From positions 1-53,801 of the forward strand of contig JAUCBJ010002606.1 in the NCBI GenBank assembly GCA_032718475.1: a stretch of DNA of 53,801 nt. The letters are read 5' to 3'. The DNA comes from Nemertoderma westbladi (Eukaryota > Animalia > Xenacoelomorpha). A program made the position numbers and the translations under genes. Positions 7,788 through 41,448 of this stretch are shown piece by piece (position 1 is the stretch's first letter; each line of letters starts with the position of its first letter). The notes beneath the pieces are model-generated. The model was not told where the DNA came from and did no database searches. It was given only the letters and a program-made list of their open reading frames with translations.

Positions 7788-10700
7788 CCAATCGCCAATC
7801 AATCGATCAATACCAATTAATAATTAAGCAACAAAAAGTTCAAATTTAAGAATAAAATTACGTATTACATGGGAAAAAATGTATAACATTATCTTTTTCA
7901 ATATACTTCGACCCTATATTAATTTCGCTGGCGCTCGGTATTTTGTGAAAACCTGGTACTCTTCACAGGGGCGATTTTGTGGGACCTCTGGCCAAACAAA
8001 AAAATAATATTTTCCAATGTCAAATAATTTATCGCAGTTGTTCTAGTACGTGGGAATTACTGTAAGATCTTAAGATAGCCTACAAAGTAAAAACTGAATA
8101 ACCAACCAACAGCCGAAAATCAAAAAACCAAACATCGAGGTCAGCCCTACAAGGGAAATAAATAACAAGACGCTACCCCTGCAGTATAGAGTTATGGAGA
8201 GAGAAGCACTGAACAGAAAACTACGGCGTAAAAGTCAAAATTGATATCGACCAAATAAATCAACAAAAACTTCATTGAGATTGCTTTTATTATACTGCTA
8301 GAAAGGTTTCCCTCCATCCAATACAGTACCATGTAAAGTATCAAATTTCCAACCTCTCAATATGTGCATTAAGATTAATAGGAAACTTTGGGGCTTTTAT
8401 ATAAAGATTAGGAAAGTGCACTAGTGCCTCTTCTTTCTTACGAGTCCATTATCAACCATTGCAGCATATCACATTCGCAGCTTGACTTAATTTATCGTAT
8501 AATGAATATCGGCGATTAATATCGTATAATGAAGACGAGAGTTCATCGTGAATCCTAGAAAGTCTCATCTATTATTGCTTCTCCTTGTGTTCGTTCCTCA
8601 GATGTAAGTGTGGGTGGTGGCTTGGATGGGTGTGGGGGAAAATGGGAATATTGATAATTATAATCAACTACCGGTATCTAGTATTAGTTTAGGACAGATA
8701 GTGGCGTACAGTGACCGCAGTTTAAATAAGTGATAAGACAAAGCAAAACCAAAATAATTTAAGTTTAATTGGATAGTTCCATCGTTACATAAGTTACATC
8801 ACGCTTCATATAAATATTTTTACCCCCATATAAATATTTTTAATTTATAAATTTATAACATATTGTATGGCATTGTTTAGCATGTCAGTAACCACTTCAT
8901 AATAATGCATTGGCTATAATTTATGAGTTGTTGTTTCCACTTGACCTTGGTTTTGGTTGTTCAACTTCCTATATTGATGTGGCAGGAATCTACACCAGGG
9001 AATTAAACCCCACCATGTATATTGTATGTGTTAATCCCACTGCTTCTTCTGATTATGTTGGCGCGATGGCAACTGACATGGAAATAATAATTAATCTATT
9101 ACTTGTGTACTGGGGTGGTTAGCGCGGAGTATGAGAGAAATGGCAGTAATCGTGATGTGGATTATAAAAGGAATGAGTTTTTTACGTCGTCACCTATAAA
9201 ATAACAATTTAATCCCCAAGATGAAAATAATGCCTTAACATGACAACCACGCCTCTTGCCTCAAGAACTGTCGACATATATTTATCATTGTATTTCCCAA
9301 ACAAAAAATACAACTAATGAAATTGCCCACCGGAAACATCAGAAAGATAACACACTCGACTGACGTACAGTAGATACAACTCAAATCCTCATAACTCGTT
9401 TCAAAATTTGGCGAATTTTTTGAGCAGATTGAAGTAGTAGAGGCGGCATGTAATCCTAACCCTAAGGCATAATATAAGCAATTTGGCAAAATTAATCTTT
9501 AAAATAGATTTATTCGATTTACCATTTAGGAAGATGTTTTTAATATAACCTTTCCAATTTGATCCAAAACTTTTTTTGTGATTTTTAACAGACAGAACGA
9601 TACACTGCATCCAGACAGCCTTGGATTCTCATATTTAACGGACAAGACAGACATGCCGCCACCCTTTTTTTAGTAATATGTTTCATAAGAACTCCAATTG
9701 GGTATAGAAAATTAATAGCTTGCAAGCTATTTATTTATGAGAAATTGAAGCAGTGAACACTGTGCAGTAAACACCGGTTCAGTCCGCAAATCTCGTCGAT
9801 ATGAAATGAAATAAGGCCTATTGATGTCATGTCATTATTAAATGCCACATCGCTAAAGGTGACGTTGTATGGAATTCTACAAAGCTAAAAGGATAAGCTC
9901 CTCTAAAGTGATTCCTGACACGAATCTTGAGATTGTTTTAACGGATTTCTGACTTCTTGGTAGAATTAGGTAACCTACAGTAGTAATATGTTAATTAGGT
10001 AGAAAGGCAACGGATATCGTAGTGGCTAAGTGGATTCCTTCGGCAAGTCGGGTTAGGTTGCTTGCGACAGGAGCAAAGCTTACAGTCCGTGAATATTTAA
10101 GGAGGCGGATTGCCTTCCCTCAGGAATCGCACTGCCCATATAAAAATAGATGATCAGAAAATGGATAGAAACTTCTAGGTAGTTGTTAGTATAGGCGTTG
10201 TCAGAGTACATTGCACATCAGGCGTCAAGGCATATTTCCGTTGTGTTCACTCAGGCGGTGTGGGACGATACTCAGATGGGTTCTGTGACTCAAATGTCAA
10301 TCGGCATTCGCAACTGAATTATATTCAAGTTTACTTCATGAATATATTGGCCACGACAATATCGGCGGAATGTCATAGGAGAATTAATGTGTCACGGGGA
10401 AGCCCAACTTTACGCTTATGCACTGGCCGGGAAGGTAGTTGATATGTCCTTGGTAATAGTGGCTGTCGGATCATTATCGTGGCTGCCGGATCATTATCGC
10501 AACTGCTGGTGCATTATGTGACCCATTTACCCCAGATGACAGAAGGGGAAACACTGCCTATCGGCTCTAAAGGAATACTTCGCAAGACCTAGCAGAGAAA
10601 CGAGATTTCTCTCTATTTAGAACTCTAACCTACTATAAGAAATGAACCTGTTACGGTAGCGGAGTTGTGCGAATGCACGCCGTACCGTAAGCGTGAACTT

Positions 10701-10860
10701 GCGCGACTACGTGGCCAGCCAGGTGTGGATAGTTCATACTGTTGAATAACGAGTTTGATGTTTCTGTAGACTATAATATGTATATTGATCGTTGATAATA
10801 AGAAAGTAGTAAACGTAACTGAATATTAAACTGATGGTGGATAATAATCGTACTAATTGA

Positions 10861-11058
10861 TTCTTCTAGGATTGGCATGCTGCATTGCAGCTGCATTTTT
10901 AAGAATGCTGTGCCGGCTTGTAGACAAAATTGCGCCGCCACAACTCCCTATCACCCATGACATTTGCTAGATCATCCGCATCTTCAAGGCCAGTGTCCTT
11001 TAAGCTGTCCACCATGCTTATTCACTCCATGAGGTCGCCAAAGCCCAAGATTTTAGAT
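10861..11058 (-). mobile_element. Short 3'-end copy of the same RTE-like LINE found at 27902-28498
   Basis: 10866-11004 is the reverse complement of ~28354-28492 with few mismatches. 11005-11033 matches ~28301-28330, implying a ~23-bp internal deletion. Confidence 0.9.
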
Positions 11059-12832
11059 AAAGAGTTTCTTTAAAGTTGTTTAACCTACCTACAAAGCACA
11101 AGATTATGCACTGGGTGGCTACGTCCTTATTAGTAATTATTTCGCTACGTCCAATCTAAATGCTCACACTAGCTCCCGGGGTGGTTTAATAGTGAGATTG
11201 TTCCCCTTACTTGTTGTGTAATAATAGATTTAGTCCCGACTAAATATATCATTGTTGTTTTGGGTTGCCAATCTGGGTTGGCTTCCCTACCGTTGTTGGC
11301 CGCTGTATTGCTTAAAACTCCCAGTAGCTTTGGTCGCTATGGTAACAGAACCGCAAAGGGACACTCATCTGTTCGTTGAGGAATGTATTGTCTTGCGATC
11401 CTCTCCTATTGATAATATTCCCAAAGCGAAGGTGGGTGGAAAAAATAAATTAGCTACTTTTCCAAAATTTAAGAAGGATGGATCCTTTCTTTTCCACAAC
11501 AACTAGCACCACGACAGCACTCGCTTACACAGAAGTCCGTCTGTCCATTCCCGTGACTCCAAACGGTATCAGTGTCCAAAGAAAGGGCCATTAAGTTCAA
11601 ATTTTCGAATTTCTGTTTATTGTAGAATTGTACTCCCTATAAAAGGTGGTCATTTTGAAACCAAATTGGGATCTTTATGATCATTTTTGACCAATATATA
11701 ACAAAATAATATGTTTTGAAGATGCATGAAATAGGCGAATTAACAAAGTGGAGTAAATCAATGTTTTAAATTTCCAAAAAAATTTAAGCTGGTAGGTACA
11801 TACATGCCAACATGGAATTTCAATTTCAATTTGTATCGGTTTCATGAACTTTCATACAAAGATCTCTATTTTGGCATGTTCTAGGTTTTTTTGGGAGGCG
11901 AATTTAACTGAACTAATTATAATACTACCAAGAAACGAAAATACTACTTTTCACTGGGTGCAAAAAGGTGGTGCCACCACCATATATATTTCATGTATAT
12001 TTCGAAATTCTGAAATTTTCAGTTGTAAGCATTTTTGAGTGCTCCTTACTTTTCGCTAAATATCGTCCAGACGAAAAACGATATGACGAAGCCGATTGTT
12101 TATTTGATATCTCCATAAAATTTCGAACATAATGAGATAATAAAAAGAAAATCTAATTTCGAAAATTTTTCGAAAATTTCGAAATCGAATCGAAAAATCG
12201 AAATTTCACTTAGTGAAATCTAATTGACTCGAAGGTAGAATAAATTGTCAATGTGATCAAATTAGGATTGTCTTTGCAATTTATTGTTGTATTTTTTGCT
12301 TTCTGGTTTACAAAATTTATATTTTTCATTAATATTTTCATAATTTCACATTAATATTTAACACTACATAGTAATAACACAACTCTATACAAAAATTCAA
12401 AAATGAAAATGGCGCTGTCCTGACCCTGAATACATGGGATTGGGGTTTGCCTCTGCATCATCACCTTTTTTAAATATAAATGATAATAAAGAGTTTGAGT
12501 AAGTATATGTACGTGTACATGTATGTATACATGTATATGCTGTATAATTATACGGCATGTTATACTCGTATACAATGTGTAAGAGTATATAATAGCATAT
12601 ATTTAAATTATCTGCCTAGGTCTACTACTATTATTAACTACCGCCTTCTATTTGTAGATACTAACAATTCCCCATCACACAAAAAAACCACCGTAGTAGG
12701 ATAATAAGATCCTACGTTTAGAATAAATACATTGGGAAGTCGGATAGTGGTTATTTGTATTTCAAGGTTAAACACAATAGATAAAATAAGTAAGGCGACG
12801 GAATAAGTAAGGAAGGTAGCATCATATTAATA

Positions 12833-15800
12833 CCTCAGTTCCTAATACAGGGAGCAACAGTTCCTAATACAGCGAGCAACAGTTCCTAATACAGGGAGCA
12901 ACCTATCCCGAACACCTCAGTTCCTAATACAGGGAGCAACCTTTCCCGAACACCTCAGTTCCTAATACAGGGAGCAACCTTTCCCGAACACCTCAGTTCC
13001 TAATACAGGGAGCAACCTTTCCCGAACACCTCAGTTCCTAATACAGGGAGCAACCTTTCCCGAACACCTCAGTTCCTAATACAGGGAGCAACCTTTCCCG
13101 AACACCTCAGTTCCTAATACAGGGAGCAACCTTTCCCGAACACCTCAGTTCCTAATACAGGGAGCAACCTTTCCCGAACACCTCAGTTCCTAATACAGGG
13201 AGCAACCTTTCCCGAACACCTCAGTTCCTAATACAGGGAGCAACCTTTCCCGAACACCTCAGTTCCTAATACAGGGAGCAACCTTTCCCGAACACCTCAG
13301 TTCCTAATACAGGGAGCAACCTTTCCCGAACACCTCAGTTCCTAATACAGGGAGCAACCTTTCCCGAACACCTCAGTTCCTAATACAGGGAGCAACCTTT
13401 CCCGAACACCTCAGTTCCTAATACAGGGAGCAACCTATCCCGAACACCTCAGTTCCTAATACAGGGAGCAACCTTTCCCGAACATCTCAGTTCCTAATTC
13501 AGGGAGCAACCTTTCCCGAACCCCTCAGTTCCTAATACAGGGAGCAACCTTTCCTGAACACCTCAGTTCCTAATACAGGGAGCAACCTTTCCCGAACACC
13601 TCAGTTCCTAATACAGGGAGCAACCTATCCCGAACACCTCAGTTCCTAATACAGGGAGCAACCTATCCCGAACACCTCAGTTCCTAATTCAGGGAGCAAC
13701 CTATCCCGAACACCTCAGTTCCTAATACAGGGAGCAACCTTTCCCGAACACCTCAGTTCCTAATACAGGGAGCAACCTTTCCCGAACACCTCAGTTCCTA
13801 ATACAGGGAGCAACCTATCCCGAACCCCTCAGTTCCTAATACAGGGAGCAACCTATCCCGAACATCTCAGTTCCTAATACAGGGAGCAACCTTTCCCGAA
13901 CACCTCAGTTCCTAATACAGGGAGCAACCTATCCCGAACACCTCAGTTCCTAATACAGGGAGCAACCTTTCCCGAACACCTCAGTTCCTAATACAGGGAG
14001 CAACCTTTCCCGAACCCCTCAGTTCCTAATTCAGGGAGCAACCTTTCCCGAACACCTCAGTTCCTAATACAGGGAGCAACCTTTCCCGAACACCTCAGTT
14101 CCTAATACAGGGAGCAACCTTTCCCGAACACCTCAGTTCCTAATACAGGGAGCAACCTATCCCGAACCCCTCAGTTCCTAATACAGGGAGCACCTATCCC
14201 GAACATCTCAGTTCCTAATACAGGGAGCAACCTTTCCCGAACACCTCAGTTCCTAATACAGGGAGCAACCTATCCCGAACACCTCAGTTCCTAATACAGG
14301 GAGCAACCTTTCCCGAACACCTCAGTTCCTAATACAGGGAGCAACCTTTCCCGAACCCCTCAGTTCCTAAAACAGGGAGCAACCTTTCCCGAACACCTCA
14401 GTTCCTAATACAGGGAGCAACCTTTCCCGAACACCTCAGTTCCTAATACAGGGAGCAACCTTTCCCGAACACCTCAGTTCCTAATACAGGGAGCAACCTA
14501 TCCCGAACCCCTCAGTTCCTAATACAGGGAGCAACCTATCCCGAACATCTCAGTTCCTAATACAGGGAGCAACCTTTCCCGAACACCTCAGTTCCTAATA
14601 CAGGGAGCAACCTATCCCGAACACCTCAGTTCCTAATACAGGGAGCAACCTTTCCCGAACACCTCAGTTCCTAATACAGGGAGCAACCTTTCCCGAACCC
14701 CTCAGTTCCTAAAACAGGGAGCAACCTTTCCCGAACACCTCAGTTCCTAACACAGGGAGCAACAGTTCCTAATACAGCGAGCAAAAGTTCCTAATACAGG
14801 GAGCAACCTTTCCCGAATACCTCAGTTCCTAATACAGGGAGCAACCTTTCCCGAACACCTCAGTTCCTATCACAGGGAGCAACAGTTCCTAATACAGCGA
14901 GCAACAGTTCCTAATACAGGGAGAAACCTTTCCCGGACCCCTCAGTTCCTAATACAGGGAGCAACCTTTCCCGAATACCTCAGTTCCTAATACAGGGAAC
15001 CTTTCCCGAACCCCTCAGTTCCTAATACAGGGAGCAACCTTTCCCGAACACCTCAGTTCCTAATACAGGGAGCAACCTTTCCCGAACCCCTCAGTTCCTA
15101 ACACAGGGAGCAACAGTTCCTAATACAGCGAGCAACAGTTCCTAATACAGGGAGCAACCTTTCCCGGACCCCTCAGTTCCTAATACAGGGAGCAACCTTT
15201 CCCGAACCCCTCAGTTCCTAATACAGGGAGCAACCTTTCCCGAACACCTCAGTTCCTAATACAGGGAGCAACCTTTCCCGAACCCCTCAGTTCCTAATAC
15301 AGGGAGGAATCTTTCCCGAACACCTCAGTTCCTAATACAGGGAGCAACAGTTCCTAATACAGCGAGCAACAGTTCCTAATACAGGGAGCAACCTTTCCCG
15401 AACACCTCAGTTCCTAATACAGGGAGCAACAGTTCCTAATACAGGGAGCAACCTTTCCCGAACACCTCAGTTCCTAATACAGGGAGCAACCTTTCCCGAA
15501 CCCCTCAGTTCCTAATACAGGGAGCAACCTTTCCCGAACCCCTCAGTTCCTATCACAGGGAGCAACAGTTCCTAATACAGCGAGCAACAGTTCCTAATAC
15601 AGGGAGAAACCTTTCCCGGACCCCTCAGTTCCTAATACAGGGAGCAACCTTTCCCGAATACCTCAGTTCCTAATACAGGGAACCTTTCCCGAACCCCTCA
15701 GTTCCTAACACAGGGAGCAACAGTTCCTAATACAGCGAGCAACAGTTCCTAATACAGGGAGCAACCTTTCCCGGACCCCTCAGTTCCTAATACAGGGAGC

Positions 15801-18009
15801 AACCTTTCCCGAACCCCTCAGTTCCTAATACAGGGAGCAACCTTTCCCGAACACCTCAGTTCCTAATACAGGGAGCAACCTTTCCCGAACCCCTCAGTTC
15901 CTAATACAGGGAGGAATCTTTCCCGAACACCTCAGTTCCTAATACAGGGAGCAACAGTTCCTAATACAGCGAGAAACAGTTCCTAATACAGGGAGCAACC
16001 TTTCCCGAACACCTCAGTTCCTAATACAGGGAGCAACAGTTCCTAATACAGGGAGCAACCTTTCCCGAACCCCTCAGTTCCTAATACAGGGAGCAACCTT
16101 TCCCGAACCCCTCAGTTCCTAATACAGGGAGCAACAGTTCCTAATACAGGGAGCCACCTTTCCCGAACACCTCAGTTCCTAATACAGGGAGCAACAGTTC
16201 CTAATACAGGGAGCAACCTTTCCCGAACCCCTCAGTTCCTAATACAGGGAGCAACCTTTCCCGAACCCCTCAGTTCCTAATACAGGGAGCAACAGTTCCT
16301 AATACAGGGAGCAACCTTTCCCGAACCCCTCAGTTCCTAATACAGGGAGCAACCTTTCCCGAACACCTCAGTTCCTAATACAGGGAGCAACCTATCCCGA
16401 ACCCCTCAGTTCCTAATACAGGGAGCAACCTATCCCGAACCCCTCAGTTCCTAATACAGGGAGCAACCTTTCCCGAACCCCTCAGTTCCTAATACAGGGA
16501 GCAACCTTTCCCGAACACCTCAGTTCCTAATACAGGGAGCAACCTTTCCCGAACCCCTCAGTTCCTAATACAGGGAGCAACCTTTCCCGAACCCCTCAGT
16601 TCCTAATACAGGGAGCAACCTTTCCCGAACACCTCAGTTCCTAATACAGGGAGCAACCTTTCCCGAACCCCTCAGTTCCTAATACAGGGAGCAACCTATC
16701 CCGAACCCCTCAGTTCCTAATACAGGGAGCAACCTTTCCCGAACACCTCAGTTCCTAATAAAGGGAGCAACCTTTCCCGAACACCTCAGTTCCTAATACA
16801 GGGAGCAACCTTTCCCGAACCCCTCAGTTCCTAATACAGGGAGCAACCTATCCCGAACCCCTCAGTTCCTAATACAGGGAGCAACCTTTCCCGAACACCT
16901 CAGTTCCTAATACAGGGAGCAACCTTTCCCGAACCCCTCAGTTCCTAATACAGGGAGCAACCTTTCCCGAACCCCTCAGTTCCTAATACAGGGAGCAACC
17001 TTTCCCGAACACCTCAGTTCCTAATACAGGGAGCAACCTATCCCGAACCCCTCAGTTCCTAATACAGGGAGCAACCTTTCCCGGACCCCTCAGTTCCTAA
17101 TACAGGGAGCAACCTATCCCGAACCCCACAGTTCCTAATACAGGGAGCAACCTATCCCGAACACCTCAGTTCCTAATACAGGGAGCAACCTTTCCCGAAC
17201 ACCTCAGTTCCTAATACAGGGAGCAACCTTTCCCGAACCCCTCAGTTCCTAATACAGGGAGCAACCTATCCCGAACCCCACAGTTCCTAATACAGGGAGC
17301 AACAGTTCCTAATACAGGGAGCAACCTTTCCCGAACACCTCAGTTCCTAATACAGGGAGCAACCTTTCCCGAACACCTCAGTTCCTAATACAGGGAGCAA
17401 CCTTTCCCGAACACCTCAGTTCCTAATACAGGGAGCAACCTTTCCCGAACACCTCAGTTCCTAACACAGGGAGCAAAAGTTCCTAATACAGGGAGCAACA
17501 GTTCCTAATACAGGGAGCAACCTTTCCCGAACCCCTCAGTTCCTAATACAGGGAGCAACAGTTCCTAATACAGGGAGCAACCTATCCCGAACACCTCAGT
17601 TCCTAATACAGGGAGCAACCTTTCCCGAACCCCTCAGTTCCTAATACAGAGAGCAACCTATCCCGAACCCCACAGTTCCTAATACAGGGAGCAACAGTTC
17701 CTAATACAGGGAGCAACCTTTCCCGAACCCCTCAGTTCCTAATACAGGGAGCAACAGTTCCTAATACAGGGAGCAACCTATCCCGAACACCTCAGTTCCT
17801 AATACAGGGAGCAACCTTTCCCGAACCCCTCAGTTCCTAATACAGGGAGCAACCTTTCCCGAACACCTCAGTTCCTAATACAGGGAGCAACCTATCCCGA
17901 ACCCCACAGTTCCTAATACAGGGAGCAACCTTTCCCGAACACCTCAGTTCCTAATACAGGGAGCAACCTTTCCCGAACCCCACAGTTCCTAATACAGGGA
18001 GCAACCTTT
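12833..18009. repeat. Minisatellite C (left part), 38-bp unit CCTCAGTTCCTAATACAGGGAGCAACCTTTCCCGAACA with interspersed 22-bp short units
   Basis: Tandem periodicity of 38 bp; short unit CAGTTCCTAATACAG(G/C)GAGCAA; interrupted mid-unit by the LTR element. Confidence 0.99.
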
Positions 18010-18552
18010 TGTGACGGGATCCAGGAGGGATCCCGATTTATCCGGTGTGGTAATTTAGTCCACGCGTCCCCGCCGTGTATAAGGATGAAATAAAGTAACT
18101 GAGTTCTGAAGTTCGGTGTATAATAATAATAGGGCATGGGATATAGATATAGATATAATGTGTACAAGGCGGGATACGGTAACTAAAGTCCCGTGATCCC
18201 CTAACTAAACTAAAGTACAATACCAACCTACGCTAGCACTGCTGCACTGAGATAACTGAATCACTGATTAATAGGTTATTGGTTATATTGCACGGTGGCC
18301 TTATTGCTACTCAATCGATGCCTTGCCCCCCTCTGATTGGTTGTTACCCTTGTTGGCGCCCCGTGGAGTGTTCCCGTTCACTCCACCTGTTCTCTCTGGG
18401 TTAGGGGTTTGGCCCCTGACCCTCTATTGTGTGCTTCCTTCCCACTCTTATTGGGATGGCACGAGTTGGTTAATTGCCCAATCTCGTGGCTCCCAATATT
18501 GCTTATCGGCTTATAACTTTATGGGGTGTTAGCGGGATTGAATAAGCTAACA
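18010..18552 (-). repeat. 3' LTR (543 bp)
   Basis: tgtgacggg...aagctaaca; identical by eye to 24680-25222 except 18053 A vs 24723 T. Confidence 0.97.
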
Positions 18553-18561
18553 CTCCCCCCC
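18553..18561 (-). promoter_or_regulatory. Polypurine tract (GGGGGGGAG) immediately upstream of the 3' LTR
   Basis: Plus strand ctccccccc abuts the LTR end; canonical PPT position for a minus-strand element. Confidence 0.85.
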
Positions 18562-19254
18562 ATGCTATCTTCCCGGTAAGAAGATAGCATCAACCAAAAA
18601 GTGCGCTACAATCCCGCTGGATCCCGATCTAGTATCGGGTGTGGGGTGGAATTCTTTTCTCTTGGAGCCGGCTTTCCAGGCCGCCCCCTATGGGTATGAT
18701 AACGCTACCCTGTGTGCCTGGCGTCTCATGTCGGGCCGATCGCGCTCACCTCTTCACGCGACTTTTGTTTCCCCAACACTTTCGCCCTATCTCCCCTCTA
18801 CTCTCACCCTAACTCTCTCATACCCCCGGACTTCCTCGTCCCTCACTCAGCCTCTTATTCTCCCCCCCCACACTAGAATTGCGTTCGCACTCTCTCCGCA
18901 CTTCGCACTCTTACTCCGATCCTCAACTCCACTTTGACTATTTTATCTCTCCTGACGAACCTCCCCCCCCTCTCGTGCCGTCGCACTCAAGAAGCGTGAA
19001 ATTGTCAGTTGTCTCGTCCATAGTGCCATAGTCAGTTATCCCCCAGTCCCAGTAGCTAATTGAGAAAGGTTGTATGACTATAGTACTTACTCCAAACGTA
19101 TGTATTTTAGATTACTAATTACTACGTACGTACATACAAATTGCACTTATATGATTATTTGCATTAATTAAATTTACACTTAATAGTTCGTACGTTCCAC
19201 GCGGCGCCTTCCAGGCACACCACGTCTCAGTCTCACTCCCTCGACTCTGAGAAC

Positions 19255-21789
19255 CTATCTGTTCCTCCTGACGTCCTCTTCCCTGGCCCGTTTCTTGGTT
19301 ATCACCGTTCCTCTGGCATCATCCGCTTTCTGCTTTCGGACCTTCGCCGCCACTTCCTTGCTAATCCCGGTCGTTGGCTCCTTGGGCGCTGGTGTTATTA
19401 GTGCCCGATATCGCTTCGCCGGTGGCCCCTCAGAATGGCCCGGTTGTCTCCCTCGAGTGGCGTCCCATAGGATCATTTTCATTGCCTTTGGTACGTGTTC
19501 CGCCAAGAAATCCCTAAACTCCCTCCGGTTCTCTGGTGTCCACCTGTCCAGGTACCGTTGCGTGTTCATAACTCCGGCGAACGACGCCGCCGTTGCTACC
19601 TCTTGATAGGTAAACGGTAACCTTCGCTTTATGATTTCCATGTGGGTCTCCTGGTTTATGAGGAAGAAACCCCACTTGAATTCTTGGGCATTCATGCGCT
19701 GGCGCGTCATGGCCCCGACGTCCGCCCACTCCTCGAATCTCGTGAACTTCTCCTCGTCGCTCATCCAGTCGCACTCGCGCCCGTAGTGTCCCCGAAAATG
19801 GCACTTTGGACATCGGTTATGCAACCGTGGACACGCCCCCATCCTGTGGCTTGGTTCTCTACAGTAGAGACAAAAGGTTCCCCGTTGGAACCGGTATAGG
19901 CAGCTGCTTTCCTGATGGGTCTGTCTCCCACAGTAGTCGCAGCCGAGTACCAATGTCTCCCGTCCCACCTCGTCTCTCGTCCCGAGCAATCTCCGCAGTC
20001 TGTGGAGTCGCTGGTAGGCGAACTTCTCTACGTTGGTCTCCCTGTTTACGTCGATCTCTCCGCCCCTCTCGGGCATCGTCTCCCCGAATACTATCCGTGG
20101 TGCCGTCCCCGGCTGCTCGCCCAACCTGATGGTGCTCCCCGCGAAATCCATCGCCGGCTCCTCGTGCACCCAGGTCCGCTTGCCGGATCTGTTCCAGAAG
20201 GCCCTCGCCCCACTGGCCGTCACCACCCTTCCGCCAACCCAGTCCGTGTCCGAGTGGCCTATCCTTTCGATGGGCGGCATCTCTCCGAAATCGTCGCCGT
20301 CGTCTTCCTCTTCTGGTAGTGTTTCCAACCCCGGTATCCCGATGGATCCACTATGTCCCTTCCCGCCTTGGCTCTCGCCCGTAGCTCTCCATCCCTCTAG
20401 CTCCCTTAGCTTCCTTGGCAGTTGGTCGCCCTCGGCGCCCGCTGGTATGGGCATCGTTTGCAACCCCGACGTCGACTGTTTCGGCGATCCCACCGTCCAT
20501 CCCAATTCTCGCCCTAGAGACTCCCCCGAACTCCCTGACGAAGTCCAATGAAGTTCGTCTAGGCCCGCCTGTTCCTCGAAGCCGTAACTCTGTGCCCTGG
20601 CCTCCTCTTCCCTCTCCTCTGCTTCTATCCTCTCCCGTCTAGCGACTTCTTCCAGTCGCTTTGCTTCTCGTCTGTCCGCCTCTAGCTGCTCCCATCTCTG
20701 ATACGGTGTATCTGTCTCCCCGTCTACCAGATGTCGGCTGTTGTAGTACACCGACTCGCCCTTCAGCCCCGGGTGGTCTACCAGACCGTCAAAGGCCACT
20801 TTAAAGGCTCTCCTGTAGCTTAGGGGTGATCCCGATAACAGAAATGCCCCTGGTTCCCTCTCGATAACCACGGTCATGAATAAGTTAAGCAAACTTATCA
20901 TCATCCAGTCCTCCTGCAGGATATATCGCTTCTGATATACCTTTATCGCTCCCCTGCGGAACTGATATACCTCCTGCTTTCCCGGTCTCGCTCCCCACTT
21001 CAGCGAGTTCGCTAGTTCTGCCCCGTATTCTTCCCTAAACTTTCCCCAGTCCATCGGTTTGTGGCATACGAGCCCCAATAATTGGCCCATCGCCACAGCC
21101 CCGCATTGGCCTGTGTTTTCGACTACCCCCAATCCATCCGGTGCCGTCATAGCCATAAAGACTTTCTGCATATCCAGGAGGTTGGTGGCGTCCGGACCGA
21201 TGATCCTCTCCGCGTCCTCGCGAATCGCCGATCCCACCTTCGTCGTCGACTTCTCCCTTACTAAGACTTGTACCGCTTTCGGTAATCGGTCTAGTTTCGG
21301 CCCGTCCTTCTTCCCATACGTCCCTAGGTCGAATAAGAAGATGTCCCCATTTGGCGCGGCCAAATGTAGGAGTATGGTCCTGGCCGACCCTGCCGTTCCT
21401 CGTCTTGAACCCGCTTCGTCTTCCACGGTTCCCTCGTCATCTAGGATCATATATCCTCCCCTGTTGACGGACTCTATGAACCTCTTCCAGTCCTTCCTCG
21501 GTGATTCCCTCGGATACTTCGGAATCCCGAACTTCGCCTCGTCCCCTTTCACCACGTAGTGGAAGTGTTGGAAGATCGCGTTGTCCAGCGACGGCGTTCC
21601 GTAGGTCCCGACCAGCCGCTGCTCGTGCATCTCCCGGAAGTGGTCCTGCAGCGCTCGTGCCGCGTGACCCCTTTCCAACTTCTCGTAGTATCCTCTCGTC
21701 TTCTCCTCCGGGTGTCTTTCGGTGAAATCCACCAGTATTTCTTTTCCTCCTGACTCCGCCTTCCTCTTCCTGATCAACTTACTCGCCAT
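19255..21789 (-). CDS. ORF2: 844-aa protein with N-terminal DEDDy 3'-5' exonuclease domain (WRN/EXD2/mut-7/RNase D-like), charged coiled-coil/disordered linker and three CCHC zinc knuckles
   Basis: Uninterrupted ORF; first ATG at 21789 in strong Kozak context (GGAATGG). ExoI MILDDEG; LLHLAAPNGDIFLFDL; ExoII LPKAVQVLVREKSTTKVGSAIREDAERI; NLLDMQ; ExoIII-like YQKRYILQED. Knuckles CDYCGRQTHQESSC, CLYCREPSHRMGAC and CPKCHFRGHYGREC at 19771-19941. Confidence 0.85.
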   Translation of the reverse strand: MASKLIRKRKAESGGKEILVDFTERHPEEKTRGYYEKLERGHAARALQDHFREMHEQRLVGTYGTPSLDNAIFQHFHYVVKGDEAKFGIPKYPRESPRKDWKRFIESVNRGGYMILDDEGTVEDEAGSRRGTAGSARTILLHLAAPNGDIFLFDLGTYGKKDGPKLDRLPKAVQVLVREKSTTKVGSAIREDAERIIGPDATNLLDMQKVFMAMTAPDGLGVVENTGQCGAVAMGQLLGLVCHKPMDWGKFREEYGAELANSLKWGARPGKQEVYQFRRGAIKVYQKRYILQEDWMMISLLNLFMTVVIEREPGAFLLSGSPLSYRRAFKVAFDGLVDHPGLKGESVYYNSRHLVDGETDTPYQRWEQLEADRREAKRLEEVARRERIEAEEREEEARAQSYGFEEQAGLDELHWTSSGSSGESLGRELGWTVGSPKQSTSGLQTMPIPAGAEGDQLPRKLRELEGWRATGESQGGKGHSGSIGIPGLETLPEEEDDGDDFGEMPPIERIGHSDTDWVGGRVVTASGARAFWNRSGKRTWVHEEPAMDFAGSTIRLGEQPGTAPRIVFGETMPERGGEIDVNRETNVEKFAYQRLHRLRRLLGTRDEVGRETLVLGCDYCGRQTHQESSCLYRFQRGTFCLYCREPSHRMGACPRLHNRCPKCHFRGHYGRECDWMSDEEKFTRFEEWADVGAMTRQRMNAQEFKWGFFLINQETHMEIIKRRLPFTYQEVATAASFAGVMNTQRYLDRWTPENRREFRDFLAEHVPKAMKMILWDATRGRQPGHSEGPPAKRYRALITPAPKEPTTGISKEVAAKVRKQKADDARGTVITKKRAREEDVRRNR

Positions 21790-22239
21790 TCCGAACACTA
21801 CACTCGCTCACCTGCAGGGTGGTGCCTTACCAAGGCGCAATACAGATGAGTGATGTATTAAGATATTTCGTACGGTTCGATAATGGCCTACTTTCTACTT
21901 AATTGCGCCTTTTAGCCTAAATTTAACCTAATTAATTTTGAAGCTAGTAAATGAGTAAATTAGGCTCATTTCTGTCCGTTACTTTTATTATGTTCTAGAA
22001 CGACTTCCCTTGTGTTGCCACTATTTCTAACTTTCAGCCCTATTCTATTTATTTTAATTCTACTGTCCTACTACCTATTACTGCCTATGGATTATTCTAT
22101 TCTCTAATCCATATTCTGGCCTACTTTGTGGGCCTATGCAGTACAGCAGTATACGTCGTGTGGCCACACGATTTACCCAGCTGTACTCATATGCCCCCCT
22201 CCCGCTACTAACTCTACTTACTGCTAACTAATATCTATA

Positions 22240-22938
22240 TCCTATTTACCCCTTTTACCTCTTACTCTCTCTCTTCTAACTAATGGTACTGCGTACCCTC
22301 TAACTCTAACTAACGGTACTACGTACCTACTAACTCTAACTCTAACTAGCGGTACTACGTACCCTCTAACTCTAACTCTAACTAGCGGTACTACGTACCC
22401 TCTAACTCTAACTCTAACTGGCGGTACTACGTACCCTCTAACTCTAACTCTAACTAGCGGTACTACGTACCCTCTAGCTCTAACTCTAGGCACTACGTAC
22501 CTACTAACTCTCTAACTCTAGGCACTACGTACCTACTAACTAACTAACTAACTCTAGGTACTACGTACCTACTAACTCTCTAACTCTAGGCACTACGTAC
22601 CTACTAACTAACTAACTCTAGGTACTACGTACCTACTAACTCTCTAACTCTAGGCACTACGTACCTACTAACTCTCTAACTCTAGGCACTACGTACCTAC
22701 TAACTCTCTAACTCTAGGCACTACGTACCTACTAACTAACTAACTCTAGGTACTACGTACCTACTAACTAACTAACTCTAGGTACTACGTACCTACTAAC
22801 CAACTAACTCTAGGTACTACGTACCTACTAACTAACTAACTCTAGGTACTACGTACCTACTAACTCTCTAACTCTAGGCACTATGTACCTACTAACTAAC
22901 TAACTCTAGGTACTACGTACCTACTAACTAACTAACTA
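22240..22938. repeat. Element-internal tandem array of ~30-36 bp units (ACTAACTCTAGGTACTACGTACCT core)
   Basis: Tandem units between ORF1 and ORF2; core TAGGTAC-tac-GTACCTA is a 7-bp inverted repeat. Confidence 0.95.
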
Positions 22939-23080
22939 TTTTTTATTTTATTTTTATTTTATTTGTGTGGGAAGGGCGTCTCGCCCTCAATCCCACCCCC
23001 CTCAGTCCAAAACTTGGACGACTAAACTACGCACTAACTCCACTTCTAAGGTGCCCCTTCTAGAAGACAGGTAACACCTC

Positions 23081-23200
23081 TGCCCGCACCTTTTACGGAT
23101 CTAACTCTTCCATCCCAGTCCAACCTGTTGGACAACTCAGCGACCCAAGGGGTGATTCCTCCAGCAGGCAACTCTCCCACTGCCCCCCTATAGGTTCTCT
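23081..23200 (-). pseudogene. Frameshifted remnant of BEL/Pao integrase C-terminal region (DUF5641-like)
   Basis: Reading across frames on minus: REP..VGE..CLLEES-PLGR-VVQQV-G-DGRVRSVK-VR, compared with the recalled consensus R.P.VGD.VL..E....WPLGRV..V..G.DG.VRSV.V. Confidence 0.55.
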
Positions 23201-24547
23201 AATTCTTCGCTCCGTTCTCCTTGTCAATTCGATAGGTGGTCTTTTCTCCTGTTTTTGGAAATGCTGTCTGCTATTTATGTTTCTGATCTCGTGGTCGTCC
23301 CTTGGCGGCAAAGTGCCACCCTTCAACGTGTCACCCGGCGGTATAATGCCGCCCCTGTTCTTCTCCTTAATCTTAGATGCCACCTCTGTTGGCCTCCCCC
23401 TTAATATGTGTGCTGGCATTAAAGGCTTCAACGACCCCCGTTCGTCCTTCGGTATACACGATGTCTCCCTACACTCCTTTTCCTCTATTTCCTCACGCTC
23501 CCTAAGATTTCTCAAAGCCCTCTCTGCCCTCTCTCCGGTTTCTCTAATCAATGCTTCTTCCCTCGCTAACCGCACTCTCCCCTCCTCTAACCGTTCCTCC
23601 ATTTCCCTTTGACCTTGTTCTACCATGCTGAGACGGTATGCGGCACCTATCTCTCTCACCACTCTTTCTTTCGCGGAGGATGTAGCAGACTTATCAGTTA
23701 CAACGGACCCCCTCCGCCTTCCCGACCTACTAACTTTCCCCCGCTTCCCCGAACTCTCTCTGACCGACGAGGCCGAATCCTCGGGGTTAACCTCGGATCC
23801 GCCCCCCTCGGGTTCCCTCCAACCCACTAATTTTGCTCCCCGGGCATCGACCAAGTATGGCCCTATGTACACTGGCGCTACGCTAGGTTCCATACTCCCG
23901 CACTCCCATAGTTCAAACAGTTCGCCCGCAACCCCTTTTGCTCTCTCCCCGGCTAGTTCTCTCTGCCCAAAACGTATTAGGTAATTAAAGTGTCTATCCG
24001 ACTCACCTAGTCGCTTTCTCAGTCTCACCTCGTCTACCTTCGCCCCTTCCTTCTTGGCGTCCTTCATCAGCTTCCGGGTCGCGTTGTAGGCCCGTCGAAG
24101 TCGTTCTGAAACCCCGACGTCCTCGTCGCCGACCTCTCCTCCGTCCCTCCGGGTTCGGCGTCGTACCGGCGGCCCCACCGTCGCCGTTCCGGTGGGCCGT
24201 CCGTCGCCCTCGGCCTGTAGCTGGCCGGCGACATCGGTACCGATCTCTCCTCTGTCTCTTCGCGTCCGGCGTCGCACCGTCGGCCCCACCGTCGCCGTTT
24301 CGGTGGGCCGCTCGTCGCCCTCGGCCGGTAGCTGGCCGGCGATATCAGCGCGCCGTTCTCCGTCTCGTGTCGACTCGTCTCCATCTCCCTCCGTCCCGCT
24401 CTCGCTTTCTCTTGGCTCGTTCTGGACTTCCGGTTCGCCCGTTATCGATGGCTCCGGCGTCGTGGGCCTGTATCGCTTGGTCGCGGCCTCGCGGATCGTT
24501 TGATCTTCGTCCGGGGTCCGCGTCGGTGTCTCGCCCGATTCACTCAT
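23093..24547 (-). CDS. ORF1: 484-aa truncated Gag-like protein (BEL/Pao-type N-terminus, no capsid or zinc fingers)
   Basis: ATG ~130 nt downstream of the 5' LTR. EVNPEDSASSV + Ser/Arg-rich tract + SSAKER + Glu/Arg coiled coil resembles the P-x-DS-x-S-x-V / coiled-coil N-terminus I recall from BEL/Pao Gag. 37-aa internal duplication. Confidence 0.65.
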   Translation of the reverse strand: MSESGETPTRTPDEDQTIREAATKRYRPTTPEPSITGEPEVQNEPRESESGTEGDGDESTRDGERRADIAGQLPAEGDERPTETATVGPTVRRRTRRDRGEIGTDVAGQLQAEGDGRPTGTATVGPPVRRRTRRDGGEVGDEDVGVSERLRRAYNATRKLMKDAKKEGAKVDEVRLRKRLGESDRHFNYLIRFGQRELAGERAKGVAGELFELWECGSMEPSVAPVYIGPYLVDARGAKLVGWREPEGGGSEVNPEDSASSVRESSGKRGKVSRSGRRRGSVVTDKSATSSAKERVVREIGAAYRLSMVEQGQREMEERLEEGRVRLAREEALIRETGERAERALRNLREREEIEEKECRETSCIPKDERGSLKPLMPAHILRGRPTEVASKIKEKNRGGIIPPGDTLKGGTLPPRDDHEIRNINSRQHFQKQEKRPPIELTRRTERRIREPIGGQWESCLLEESPLGSLSCPTGWTGMEELDP

Positions 24548-24679
24548 CTCGTCTGGTGGCTGATGGTTCGGCTAGCTAGGCTGCAGTTTTTGATGTTCAA
24601 CTGGGGCTTCTTCCTCGGATTTAGTTACTAGTAGGTGGTTTGGGTTTTAGTTACTGTTCAGGGCACCGGGTTTAGTTAC

Positions 24680-25222
24680 TGTGACGGGATCCAGGAGGGA
24701 TCCCGATTTATCCGGTGTGGTATTTTAGTCCACGCGTCCCCGCCGTGTATAAGGATGAAATAAAGTAACTGAGTTCTGAAGTTCGGTGTATAATAATAAT
24801 AGGGCATGGGATATAGATATAGATATAATGTGTACAAGGCGGGATACGGTAACTAAAGTCCCGTGATCCCCTAACTAAACTAAAGTACAATACCAACCTA
24901 CGCTAGCACTGCTGCACTGAGATAACTGAATCACTGATTAATAGGTTATTGGTTATATTGCACGGTGGCCTTATTGCTACTCAATCGATGCCTTGCCCCC
25001 CTCTGATTGGTTGTTACCCTTGTTGGCGCCCCGTGGAGTGTTCCCGTTCACTCCACCTGTTCTCTCTGGGTTAGGGGTTTGGCCCCTGACCCTCTATTGT
25101 GTGCTTCCTTCCCACTCTTATTGGGATGGCACGAGTTGGTTAATTGCCCAATCTCGTGGCTCCCAATATTGCTTATCGGCTTATAACTTTATGGGGTGTT
25201 AGCGGGATTGAATAAGCTAACA
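24680..25222 (-). repeat. 5' LTR (543 bp)
   Basis: Direct repeat of 18010-18552, followed by TSD CCTTT and resumption of the satellite in register. Confidence 0.97.
24924..25010 (-). promoter_or_regulatory. Putative LTR Pol II promoter: CCAAT (25010-25006), TATAA (24957-24953), Inr TCAGTT with A+1 at 24927
   Basis: TATA lies exactly 30 nt upstream of an arthropod-type initiator A; CCAAT at about -80. Confidence 0.6.
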
Positions 25223-27812
25223 CCTTTCCCGAACACCTCAGTTCCTAATACAGGGAGCAACCTTTCCCGAACACCTCAGTTCCTAATACAGGGAGCAACC
25301 TTTCCCGAACCCCTCAGTTCCTAAAACAGGGAGCAACCTTTCCCGAACACCTCAGTTCCTAATACAGGGAGCAACCTTTCCCGAACACCTCAGTTCCTAA
25401 CACAGGGAGCAAAAGTTCCTAATACAGGGAGCAACTTTTCCCGAACACCTCAGTTCCTAATACAGGGAGCAACCTTTCCCGAACCCCTCAGTTCCTAAAA
25501 CAGGGAGCAACCTTTCCCGAACACCTCAGTTCCTAACACAGGGAGCAACAGTTCCTAATACAGCGAGCAAAAGTTCCTAATACAGGGAGCAACCTTTCCC
25601 GAACACCTCAGTTCCTAATACAGGGAGCAACCTTTCCCGAACCCCTCAGTTCCTAATACAGGGAGCAACCTTTCCCGAACCCCTCAGTTCCTAGTACAGG
25701 GAGCAACCTCTCCCGAACACCTCAGTTCCTAATACAGGGAGCAACCTTTCCCGAACCCCTCAGTTCCTAAAACAGGGAGCAACCTTTCCCGAACACCTCA
25801 GTTCCTAACACAGGGAGCAACAGTTCCTAATACAGCGAGCAAAAGTTCCTAATACAGGGAGCAACCTTTCCCGAACACCTCAGTTCCTATCACAGGGAGC
25901 AACAGTTCCTAATACAGCGAGCAACAGTTCCTAATACAGGGAGCAACCTTTCCCGAACACCTCAGTTCCTAGTACAGGGAGCAACCTTTCCCGGACCCCT
26001 CAGTTCCTAATACAGGGAGCAACCTTTCCCGAACCCCTCAGTTCCTAATACAGGGAGCAACCTTTCCCGAACACCTCAGTTCCTAATACAGGGAGCAACC
26101 TTTCCCGAACCCCTCAGTTCCTAACACAGGGAGCAACAGTTCCTAATACAGCGAGAAACAGTTCCTAATACAGGGAGCAACCTATCCCGAACACCTCAGT
26201 TCCTAATACAGGGAGCAACAGTTCCTAATACAGCGAGCAACAGTTCCTAATACAGCGAGCAACATTTCCTAACACAGGGAGCAACAGTTCCTAATACAGC
26301 GAGAAACAGTTCCTAATACAGGGAGCAACCTATCCCGAACACCTCAGTTCCTAATACAGGGAGCAACAGTTCCTAATACAGCGAGCAACAGTTCCTAATA
26401 CAGCGAGCAACCGTTCCTAATACAGGGAGCAACCTTTCCCGAACACCTCAGTTCCTAACACAGGGAGCAACCTATACCGAACACCTCAGTTCCTAACACC
26501 GGGAGCAACCTATCCCGAACACCTCAGTTCCTAATACAGGGAGCAACCTTTCCCGAACACCTCAGTTCTTAACACAGGGAGCAACACTTCCTAATACAGC
26601 GAGCAACAGTTCCTAATACAGCGAGCAACAGTTCCTAATACAGCGAGCAACAGTTCCTAATACAGCGAGCAACAGTTCCTAATACAGGGAGCAACCTTTC
26701 CCGAACACCTCAGTTCCTAATACAAGGAGCAACCTTTCCCGAACACCTCAGTTCCTAATACAGGGAGCAACAGTTCCTAATACAGGGAGCAACCTTTCCC
26801 GAACAGCTCAGTTCCTAATACAAGGAGCAACCTATCCCGAACACCTCAGTTCCTAATACAGGGAGCAACCTTTCCCGAACACCTCAGTTCCTAATACAAG
26901 GAGCAACCTATCCCGAACACCTCAGTTCCTAATACAGGGAGCAACCTTTCCCGAACACCTCAGTTCCTAATACAGGGAGCAACCTATCCCGAACACCTCA
27001 GTTCCTAATACAGGGAGCAAACTTTCCCGAACACCTCAGTTCCTAATACAAGGAGCAACCTTTCCCGAACACCTCAGTTCCTAATACAGGGAGCAACAGT
27101 TCCTAATACAGGGAGCAACCTATCTCGAACACCTCAGTTCCTAATACAGGGAGCAACCTTTCCCGAACACCTCAGTTCCTAATACAGGGAGCAACCTATC
27201 CCGAACACCTCAGTTCCTAATACAGGGAGCAACCTATCCCGAACACCTCAGTTCCTAATACTGGGAGCAACCTATCCCGAACACCTCAGTTCCTAACACA
27301 GGGAGCAACCTTTACCGAACACCTCAGTTCCTAATACAGGGAGCAACCTTTCCCGAACACCTCAGTTCCTAATACAGGGAGCAACCTATCCCGAACACCT
27401 CAGTTCCTAATACAGGGAGCAACCTATCCCGAACACCTCAGTTCCTAACACAGGGAGCAACCTTTCCCGAACACCTCAGTTCCTAATACAGGGAGCAACC
27501 TTTCCCGAACACCTCAGTTCCTAATACAGGGAGCAACCTTTCCCGAACACCACAGTTCCTAATACAGGGAGCAACAGTTCCTAATACAGGGAGCAACCTT
27601 TCCCGAACACCTCAGTTCCTAATACAAGGAGCAACCTATCCCGAACACCTCAGTTCCTAATACAGGGAGCAACCTTTCCCGAACCCCTCAGTTCCTAATA
27701 CAGGGAGCAACAGTTCCTAATACAGGGAGCAACAGTTCCTAATACACGGAGCAACCTTTTCCGAACACCTCAGTTCCTAATACAGGGAGCAACCTTTCCC
27801 GAACACCTCAGT
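25223..27812. repeat. Minisatellite C (right part), same 38/22-bp units
   Basis: Continues in phase after the TSD. Confidence 0.99.
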
Positions 27813-27901
27813 GATGCATAATGATGAAGAAGTAAGTAGAATGGAAATCTCAGTGCACAATGGAATGATTCTGATAAAGTTGAGGAGTATTATACGATAA
27901 T

Positions 27902-28498
27902 CCTGGGATCATGAAGTCAGGTGAGGACCTTCGAATACGTAAGGGAAAGGCATGGGCAGCCTTGAATAGGCTTTCCAGGATTTGGAAGTCACCGAGAATT
28001 AATCGGAAACTTAAGGTCCGATTATTTAGAGCAGCAGTAGTTCCAGTACTCCTCTATGGGAGTCCATGCTGGGCTCTAACTGCTAAGGACACCAAATCTC
28101 TGGATGGCACATTCACAAGAATGCTACGTCGGGTTCATTGTGTCAAGTTCAATGCACACATCTCCAACCAGACACTATATAACATTGGAGGTGTCTCATT
28201 GGTTCCCCCAAGCTTGACACTAGAACAAAATCGCCTCCGCTTTGCAGGACATTGCTTTCGCCGTGAGGACCAGCCAGTGCATAATCTTGTACTTTGGCAG
28301 CCTCATGGAGTGAATAAGCATGGTGGACAGCCCATGACTTTCTTGAGACGCATCTTAAAGGACACTGGCCTTGAAGATGCGGATAATCTAGCAAATGTCA
28401 TGGGTGATAGGGAGTTGTGGCGGCGCAATTTTGGCGACAAGCCGGCACAGCATTCTTAAAAATACAGCTGCAATGCAGCATGCCGATCCTAGTAGTAG
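27902..28498 (+). mobile_element. 5'-truncated RTE-clade non-LTR retrotransposon (C-terminal 182 aa of the RT ORF, 27911-28459)
   Basis: RIRKGKAWAALNRLSRIWKS..KLKVRLFRAAVVPVLLYGS..W, RLRFAGHCFR and DRELWR are RTE C-terminal motifs; short 3' UTR ends in (TAG)n; 11-bp TSD TATACGATAAT at 27891-27901 and 28499-28509. Confidence 0.9.
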
Positions 28499-38925: not shown

Positions 38926-39508
38926 TAAAGGTATTCAATTCACACGAAAGCAAATCAAAATCAAAATCGGTGCTCAACTCACTCTGACCAAAAAACGAAC
39001 TCAACAGTAAACACAGAAAAAAATATATTATACGACATACCGAATCAATTCTCCGATAAAACAGAGAAACACAATGAAGGCACACTCACTGCACACACCT
39101 AAGCTCATAAATTATTTGGTGTAAATTATAATATAATATATGCTGCGAGCAAAGATTGACAGAGGTTGGATCGAGTGCAGCAGGTGGCAGCGGTTGGGCA
39201 ATTAAACCGCTTATTGAATTAACCATGTGAGCCGTCGCCCGCTCAGCCTTTCAACCCTGACCACAAATAAATAATATAATATAACCTAACAAATTTGTAA
39301 GCTGAATTATTCGCTTATCAAATTCGAACTTCACTACGAAAAGCGGCTAATTGAGAAAACAAAACAAGTGCACTTTGGTTACTCCCTGAGAGAAACTTCA
39401 TTCGAATTGTAGATTAGGTAATCGAGTTGGATATAGGGACTACATGGTGTAGTGTAGGGGATCGGAATTCAAAGTAAATTACATAGAATTAATTAGAAAT
39501 CAACTAAC

Positions 39509-41013: not shown

Positions 41014-41448
41014 CTAAAATAAATGTTAAAAAAAAAACTGAATAATAACTTGATGGTGTTGATGCAAACTGAACAATTGCGAATGTGAAAGAAAATAGCT
41101 GATAGCATGGCGATAGAAGGCTGTCATTTGTTTTTTATATTGTATTATATATTATTTATATTTATCGGTAACAAACTTATAGTATGAAAATGATAAATTA
41201 CAAATCAAAATTATAAGTTGGTACGAATGAAACATTAGTGATGAAACCCGGAGTTGCATTCACCTTAATTATTACAGAAAGTATAAACAATATCCACTCA
41301 ATTCGTTCTCGTTTATATCGATTTAACTTTTAAATTACAATTACCAAATAATGGGGATAAATAATGGGGACACTAGAGGCGCCACTTTTCACGGTTCTCG
41401 TGGATCTCGCAGGTTACAAGAGTAGCGGATGAATATATCGGCGGATGT

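Follow-up and report, generated by a model that had tools for sequence, protein, structure and literature searches.

The window analysed here is a stretch of 53,801 nucleotides of DNA from Nemertoderma westbladi (Xenacoelomorpha; assembly GCA_032718475.1, contig JAUCBJ010002606.1, positions 1 to 53,801). A long terminal repeat (LTR) retrotransposon of 7,213 bp total lies in it at 18010-25222 on the minus strand, with two long open reading frames (ORFs) and no recognisable pol. ORF2 encodes a predicted exonuclease, and this exonuclease gene appears to be the sole gene that a pol-less family of elements keeps under selection. The main features are as follows.

12832-27812, no strand: 38-bp satellite array, interrupted by the element
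18005-18009, no strand: target-site duplication (TSD), left copy CCTTT; satellite phase agrees
18010-18552, minus strand: 3' LTR, 543 bp, TG...CA
18553-18563, minus strand: polypurine tract, G-rich, adjoining the 3' LTR
19255-21789, minus strand: ORF2, 844 codons, with DEDDy exonuclease domain, linker, three CCHC knuckles and helical C-terminal part
19771-19941, minus strand: three tandem CX2CX4HX4C zinc knuckles of ORF2, residues 623-679
20764-21609, minus strand: RNase D/Nibbler/EXD2-like exonuclease domain of ORF2, about residues 67-348 of the stop-to-stop frame
23093-24547, minus strand: ORF1 of 484 codons, occupying the gag position; product charged and of low complexity; homologue not found
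24680-25222, minus strand: 5' LTR, 543 bp
25223-25227, no strand: TSD, right copy CCTTT

The two LTRs, both with TG...CA ends, differ at LTR position 44 only. The register of the 38-bp satellite unit shows that insertion duplicated five bases and no more; thus, the TSD is the footprint of an integrase and no artefact of the repeat. Both ORFs are unbroken, and the chance of frames of this length staying free of stops at their own base composition is 3e-9 for ORF1 and 2e-16 for ORF2. An earlier note on this DNA had described the LTRs with their one mismatch, the TSD, the polypurine tract and the two long unbroken ORFs, and a direct check of the sequence bore this out. The recent insertion that it proposed is likewise supported. 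Belpaoviridae have LTRs of 0.2-1.2 kb, a total length of 4.2-10 kb, an 18-nt tRNA primer site and metazoan hosts (PMC8742986). Both the LTR length and the total length of the element fall within these ranges, and the 3' LTR is preceded by a polypurine tract of the kind found in BEL/Pao elements (about 10 nt). The element also bears the marks of a non-autonomous LTR element, namely intact LTR ends and a TSD, with reverse transcriptase (RT) and integrase of its own missing.

The ORF2 protein and its relatives

A profile of 25 ORF2 family rows matched EXD2 at E=5.6e-12, and also matched T. brucei RNase D, WRN, Egalitarian and mut-7. A structure model built on 25 rows (mean predicted local distance difference test score, pLDDT, of 62) found its best structural matches in RNase D, Egalitarian, Nibbler and RRP6; Nibbler was aligned over 204 residues with a Z of 14.9 and a root-mean-square deviation of 3.2. 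The fold of the exonuclease part from the single sequence was unusable (pLDDT 36). Profile and predicted structure thus both place ORF2 in the DEDDy fold. Residues D123, E125, D198, Y295 and E299 occupy the conserved columns of the family, so that the four acidic residues and the tyrosine of ExoI, ExoII and ExoIII are represented, the last Asp being replaced by Glu, as it is in 21 of 75 family rows. The Cys and His columns of the knuckles are invariant or almost so among 25 aligned rows. The EXD2 match, the Nibbler-like predicted structure and the kept residues support the earlier identification of ORF2 as an exonuclease, and on this model the protein is predicted to bind and trim RNA.

Searches with the sequence itself were less telling. 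Among 1.84 billion representatives, 70 proteins matched ORF2 at E <=0.001, nearly all through the zinc region, and none of the names looked up was informative. Word-index protein searches with ORF2 and its alignment returned no match, and the Atlas lead, a cluster of RNase D with CCHC, scored 0.83, below the 0.9 mark. The exonuclease fold is shared with T. brucei RNase D (PDB 7c42-7c4c), Nibbler/mut-7, EXD2 and Egalitarian, and T. brucei RNase D likewise couples it to CCHC knuckles. These RNase D-type proteins are, however, cellular and 12-17% identical to ORF2.

A DNA pattern of the zinc motif matched at least 120 metagenome loci. The loci were collected via ORF2, a sample that could not show helpers lacking ORF2. 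Peptidase_A17 and DUF5641 matches were present in all 12 long ORFs scanned upstream of ORF2 homologues, and pol lay upstream of ORF2 in 37 of the 45 loci having at least 2.6 kb of upstream DNA, as found with a gag-pol profile derived from 15 of those loci. A second gene of the ORF2 type is therefore the rule in a broad BEL/Pao group, and the ORF2 homologues make up an unnamed family situated behind BEL/Pao gag-pol. The BEL/Pao affinity suggested earlier is in this way supported for ORF2, through the gag-pol upstream of its relatives.

The rest of the 45-locus set consisted of L022, with a Gag knuckle and integrase tail only, and seven loci without a match, two of them chance. L022 (about 5180-10930, oriented) is an older, independent, pol-deleted BEL/Pao copy, in which the Gag knuckle, the integrase tail and an ORF2 with one stop lie between LTR pieces 77-92% alike. 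The existence of this older, unrelated deletion copy indicates that deletions sparing ORF2 recur. L012 and L071 were rejected as chance pattern matches without an ORF2 match, L071 having bacterial genes. L005, L008, L032, L052 and L075 had no upstream pol, yet were not counted as pol-less since their LTR pairs were unreadable. The near-identical contigs L008, L032 and L072 carry a short ORF2 form of 507 aa, again with no readable LTR pair, and L008 and L032 gave no gag-pol match within about 2 kb upstream. The ORF2 of L005 and L051 is about 1,550-1,590 codons long, with a long N-terminal extension. No close relative of ORF2 was found in the metagenome and viral contigs, and the ORF2 motif pattern had 0 matches in viral contigs.

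Judged by its aligned sequences, the ORF2 family holds both intact and catalytically altered branches, and 41 of the 75 rows keep the acidic residues of ExoI and ExoIII. One well-supported branch without the ExoI acidic residues is still open (L002, L007, L031, L033, L034, L037, and further L060, L062, L066, L069 and L080); it resembles RNA-binding pseudo-nucleases.

Copies, selection and the missing pol

A six-frame search with the gag-pol profile of 15 relatives gave no significant match in the element, and a Pfam scan of ORF1 and ORF2 gave none. A BEL/Pao pol with protease, RT, RNase H and integrase is thus missing, as is a Gag with capsid and nucleocapsid, ORF1 having neither a knuckle, nor DUF1759, nor a likeness to the Gag of the relatives. 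The absence of protease, RT, RNase H and integrase core, which the earlier note had reported, is accordingly borne out by two blank searches. A word-index search with ORF1 against longer proteins found no match, and an Atlas search no cluster. The Gag label of ORF1 reflects its position and is not confirmed; the earlier view that ORF1 is an N-terminal fragment of Gag found no Gag likeness behind it. Three further features bear on the loss of pol and on variation among copies.

23396-23428, minus strand: integrase-tail-like motif KPLMPAHILRG, in frame with ORF1; weak
23465-23466, no strand: break, where a piece absent from this copy is present in contigs of all four runs
24129-24346, no strand: 111-bp (37-codon) duplication in ORF1; one unit missing, in frame, in other copies

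The motif KPLMPAHILRG scored 3.8 bits against the BEL/Pao integrase tail, compared with a maximum of 3.1 in 300 shuffles, in a region picked post hoc. It sits 110 codons before the ORF1 stop, the corresponding distance being 125-194 in 13 relatives. A frameshift-aware alignment for the integrase tail scored 24.2, which is within background (null mean 21.1, maximum 30.8, n=100; positive control 89.2). Since a single weak motif, itself in frame, and a background score are what was found, the heavily frameshifted pol remnant described earlier is not confirmed.

Pieces of the element occur in six sequencing runs from four studies; no RNA dataset is listed among the runs with element sequence. In organism A, all 30 of 30 element bins were covered in each of three studies, by 19,671, 8,220 and 178 contigs respectively, with identities to the element from 85 to >99%. 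A run labelled organism B covered 23 bins with 41 contigs. Summed contig depth is no copy number, but thousands of variant contigs imply many copies of mixed age. The full bin coverage supports the earlier claim of a long-lived family, as opposed to a lone broken copy or a misassembly.

Substitutions in ORF2 and ORF1 were counted from the best-supported 40 of 702 differences. Within this set, 19 of 25 ORF2 differences fall at codon position 3, and 18 of the 25 are synonymous where 29% would be expected (p=1.4e-5). None of the 12 indels listed (of 111) lies between the start and stop of either ORF, and the length changes seen in ORF1, namely the 111-bp unit and one compensated pair, keep its frame. 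The thousands of variant contigs, together with the mostly synonymous differences in ORF2, point to what is likely a pol-less family with many copies, in which ORF2 is maintained by selection. Selection on ORF2 in such a family would mean that the role of ORF2 is separable from Gag-Pol.

At 23465, similar sequence follows in each of the four runs. Two loose ends of run X5 appear to overlap at this position, which suggests about 50 extra bases there and not kilobases of pol. The common form at the break thus looks pol-less in all four runs.

The primer site

The earlier note had overlooked that a tRNA-type (TGG) primer site is absent from the 5' LTR end of the element, where BEL/Pao elements have 18 nt. 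Three features at or related to this position are listed here.

24656-24668, minus strand: decayed sequence that by eye resembles the tRNA-type primer site of the relatives; lies 11 nt from the LTR end
24671-24679, minus strand: LTR-adjacent 9-mer GTAACTAAA at the primer-site position, with repeats at 24646-24654 and 24620-24628
24849-24857, minus strand: exact complement of GTAACTAAA in the LTR, at LTR nt 366-374, also at 18179-18187

A TGG-type motif is present in 16 of 23 relatives checked, mostly a few bases past a CA that resembles the LTR end. Copies in three studies rejoin at 24671 and skip the decayed site (short side 21-23 letters). The window holds no tRNA gene and the element no Rfam match of weight, so an element-encoded tRNA primer was not found. 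By contrast with a tRNA-type site, the 9-mer is complementary to the element's own LTR, as in Tf1-type priming (9 nt, noticed post hoc). The match of 9/9 nt at offset 0 was equalled in a fraction of 0.001 of 5,000 LTR shuffles, or 0.008 for offsets 0-3, again post hoc. LTR complementarity of 9 nt is found for 20 of the 6,107 internal anchors, four of these being GTAACTAAA. A spliced variant reaches 10 nt at offset 1, a length reached by 0 of 300 control anchors, and the complement of GTAACTAAA is confined to the LTRs. Self-priming from this LTR-complementary 9-mer, with minus-strand synthesis started without a full tRNA, is accordingly put forward as a tentative proposal.

In the self-priming elements Tf1 and Tj1, too, it is their own LTR and not a tRNA that the primer-site position complements (PMC4600332 and PMC6317226). 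These elements differ in being gypsy or copia with a pol of their own, whereas here the match is 9 nt and its folding unfavourable. That a fresh copy is without the tRNA primer site raises the question of how such a parasite primes the RT of its helper.

Several observations by eye or by folding concern the same regions. Near LTR nt 266-305, a TATA-like sequence and motifs resembling an initiator hint, on inspection by eye, that the start lies further upstream. A long hairpin is predicted, without shuffle control, in the 3' third of the LTR at 24723-24857 (LTR nt 366-500) and includes the GTAACTAAA complement. In the 3' untranslated region, the 18 nt at 18609-18626 contain two 10-nt blocks complementary to both LTR ends, which could join the RNA ends for strand transfer or may be chance. 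Neither AATAAA nor ATTAAA is present in the LTR sense strand (24680-25222).

Origin of the element, known systems and surroundings

Taken together, these data are best explained if the element is a young copy of a probable many-copy, non-autonomous, pol-less family that derives from BEL/Pao, is likely copied and inserted by the Gag-Pol of a related element and has kept ORF2 intact. An old internal deletion very probably took capsid, nucleocapsid, protease, RT, RNase H and integrase core. A BEL/Pao helper would, with only slightly less assurance, package, reverse-transcribe and integrate the element RNA in trans. The anatomy implies the mobilisation in trans that had been proposed earlier; the helper itself is inferred, none having been seen. 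ORF2 would probably be translated from a spliced subgenomic RNA and act as a 3'-5' exoribonuclease. How ORF2 has been retained is more speculative. Its knuckles may bind the element's own RNA while the nuclease trims the 3' ends of RNAs, either the primer or small RNAs that act in silencing, and copies encoding ORF2 would thereby gain an advantage. The knuckles could substitute for the own-message preference of the lost nucleocapsid, and the nuclease could shorten either silencing RNAs or the primer; the closest structures include Nibbler, a small-RNA trimmer.

LTR length, total size, polypurine tract and an ORF2 common to full-length members tie the element to BEL/Pao. Unlike BEL/Pao, it lacks pol, a recognisable capsid or nucleocapsid and the 18-nt tRNA primer site, and is therefore classed as a derivative, operating in the manner of other non-autonomous LTR elements, and not as a member.

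Several results weigh against this explanation. Apart from the unseen helper, ORF1 aligned to the Gag of the relatives with an hhalign probability of 0.4 (control 0.1), which is no likeness. The ORF2 of the element sits on a long branch and its two nearest proteins have no known context, so that the BEL/Pao origin is indirect. In 24 of 75 family rows another residue stands in place of the first catalytic Asp, and catalysis is thus dispensable in part of the family. The 25 ORF2 sites that carry the selection signal were drawn from the best-supported rows only, and the codon bias of ORF1 is not significant (15/36 at position 3, p=0.19). No contig bridging 23465 was present among the 19 listed of 357 pieces, and one X3 contig extends 101 bases beyond 23465 without its rejoining being listed; longer forms may therefore exist. 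The contigs are short, and ORF2 differences are not assignable to pol-less as opposed to full-length copies, so part of the selection signal could stem from the latter. As for self-priming, the pair probability of GTAACTAAA with the LTR is <=0.01 in folds, with the LTR site inside another hairpin.

The unphased contigs leave most room for an ordinary deletion derivative of an active full-length family, in which ORF2 would simply be carried along, the signal of silent changes having arisen in full-length copies or before the deletion. Low-depth contigs that match 23364-23463 only, at 83% and with flanks of a different sequence, behave as a diverged pol-bearing relative would, L022 is a comparable deletion copy with a stop in ORF2, and within-genome variation of a rotifer counterpart, ORF3, was mostly neutral (PMC5408684). 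On the other hand, ORF2 has stayed open over 844 codons and preserved both its catalytic and its zinc residues, although of the integrase tail no more than one weak motif is left, and in all four runs the prevailing form at the break looks pol-less. A passenger ORF2 is thus unlikely, though it is the strongest of the alternatives.

Two mutually dependent partners, as the earlier note had suggested, would also account for ORF2 being under purifying selection where pol is missing, with the element giving the exonuclease and a helper that has lost ORF2 giving Gag-Pol. In a more far-reaching form of this reading, the element would be a satellite without pol, the tRNA site and most of gag, priming itself from its own LTR, and its RNA exonuclease with nucleocapsid-like knuckles would be needed in cis or by an ORF2-less helper, as a split LTR retrotransposon of an animal genome. 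Among the loose ends listed (24 of 1,252; 15 of 56), none was conspicuous as a close relative carrying pol. The full-length relatives, by contrast, hold gag-pol and ORF2 together (the 37 of 45 loci, a sample chosen through ORF2), so that by default a helper would bring an ORF2 of its own. Loci found through ORF2 were bound to miss any helper lacking it, but there is no positive evidence for such a pair, which is considered improbable, in its general form as in the self-primed one.

It is very improbable that the element descends from a different LTR superfamily (gypsy, for example) which acquired ORF2, and that the integrase-like motif arose by chance. DEDDy ORFs do shift between unrelated rotifer retroelements (PMC5408684, available part), the motif is weak and was chosen post hoc, and the nearest ORF2 relatives are without context. 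Against this, every long upstream ORF scanned (12/12) was BEL/Pao, the motif is positioned where a BEL/Pao integrase tail belongs, and the decayed primer site resembles, by eye, that of the relatives. A single broken copy or misassembly is scarcely credible given the 30/30 bins covered in three studies, the extension of both sides of the join into matching short sequence and the exact TSD, although the exact 23465 join is unbridged by the listed contigs and a small deletion there may be private or an assembly error.

TR-GAG non-autonomous LTR elements likewise have LTRs and a TSD but no pol and are mobilised in trans; they keep gag, whereas the pol-less element of this window keeps an enzyme-like gene. 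LARD and TRIM elements resemble it in having LTRs and a TSD without pol and in being mobilised in trans, but are recognised by structure alone (PMC5718144). In the rotifer Adineta vaga, the non-autonomous LTR elements of the TelKA2n family share the overall pattern of loss; in the part of the source available, the accessory ORF of TelKA2n is env-like instead of an exonuclease, selection on it is not shown, and the family is not described as BEL/Pao (PMC5408684).

The rotifer LTR elements Juno and Vesta and the Athena retroelements carry a DEDDy-type ORF3, which is similarly an RNase D-like gene downstream of pol with its catalytic residues intact. According to the same portion of that study (PMC5408684), ORF3 variation is neutral where sampled and its role is not known, and neither a sign of selection nor a function was found for the retrotransposon exonuclease genes. 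ORF2 differs from ORF3 in its BEL/Pao carrier, its three tandem CCHC knuckles, its conserved C-terminal part, its catalytically altered branches and its survival, marked by a signal of purifying selection, in a family lacking pol.

The extra genes named for BEL/Pao are env-like only in PMC8742986 and env only in the available part of PMC3118150, and the word 'exonuclease' has 0 occurrences in PMC3118150 and PMC12440569. No description of an exonuclease ORF in BEL/Pao was found in titles and abstracts, a search outside which lie Repbase, subscription journals and supplements that may record the ORF; nor was a split LTR retrotransposon pair found in titles and abstracts. The closest precedents for the element are TelKA2n and the rotifer DEDDy ORF3s. 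A young, many-copy system of this kind is suited to asking whether ORF2 trims silencing RNAs, matures the primer or aids packaging.

Minor features of the element are the following.

18563-18589, minus strand: predicted hairpin just before the polypurine tract; RNA fold
21807-21819, minus strand: candidate splice acceptor, picked out by eye, ahead of the start of ORF2
22275-22938, no strand: inter-ORF tandem repeat of about 32-bp unit, differing among copies; contig joints

Outside the element, a low-complexity ORF of 544 codons at 39500-41134 (minus strand), without a Pfam match, is a likely host exon. The satellite array ends at a DUF6451 fragment (27813-28495) that probably represents the 3' terminus of a non-LTR element; an inverted related piece (10863-11052) lies 17 kb upstream. 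At least 10 different minisatellite arrays with units of 25-56 bp occupy much of the window, between 398 and 52765.

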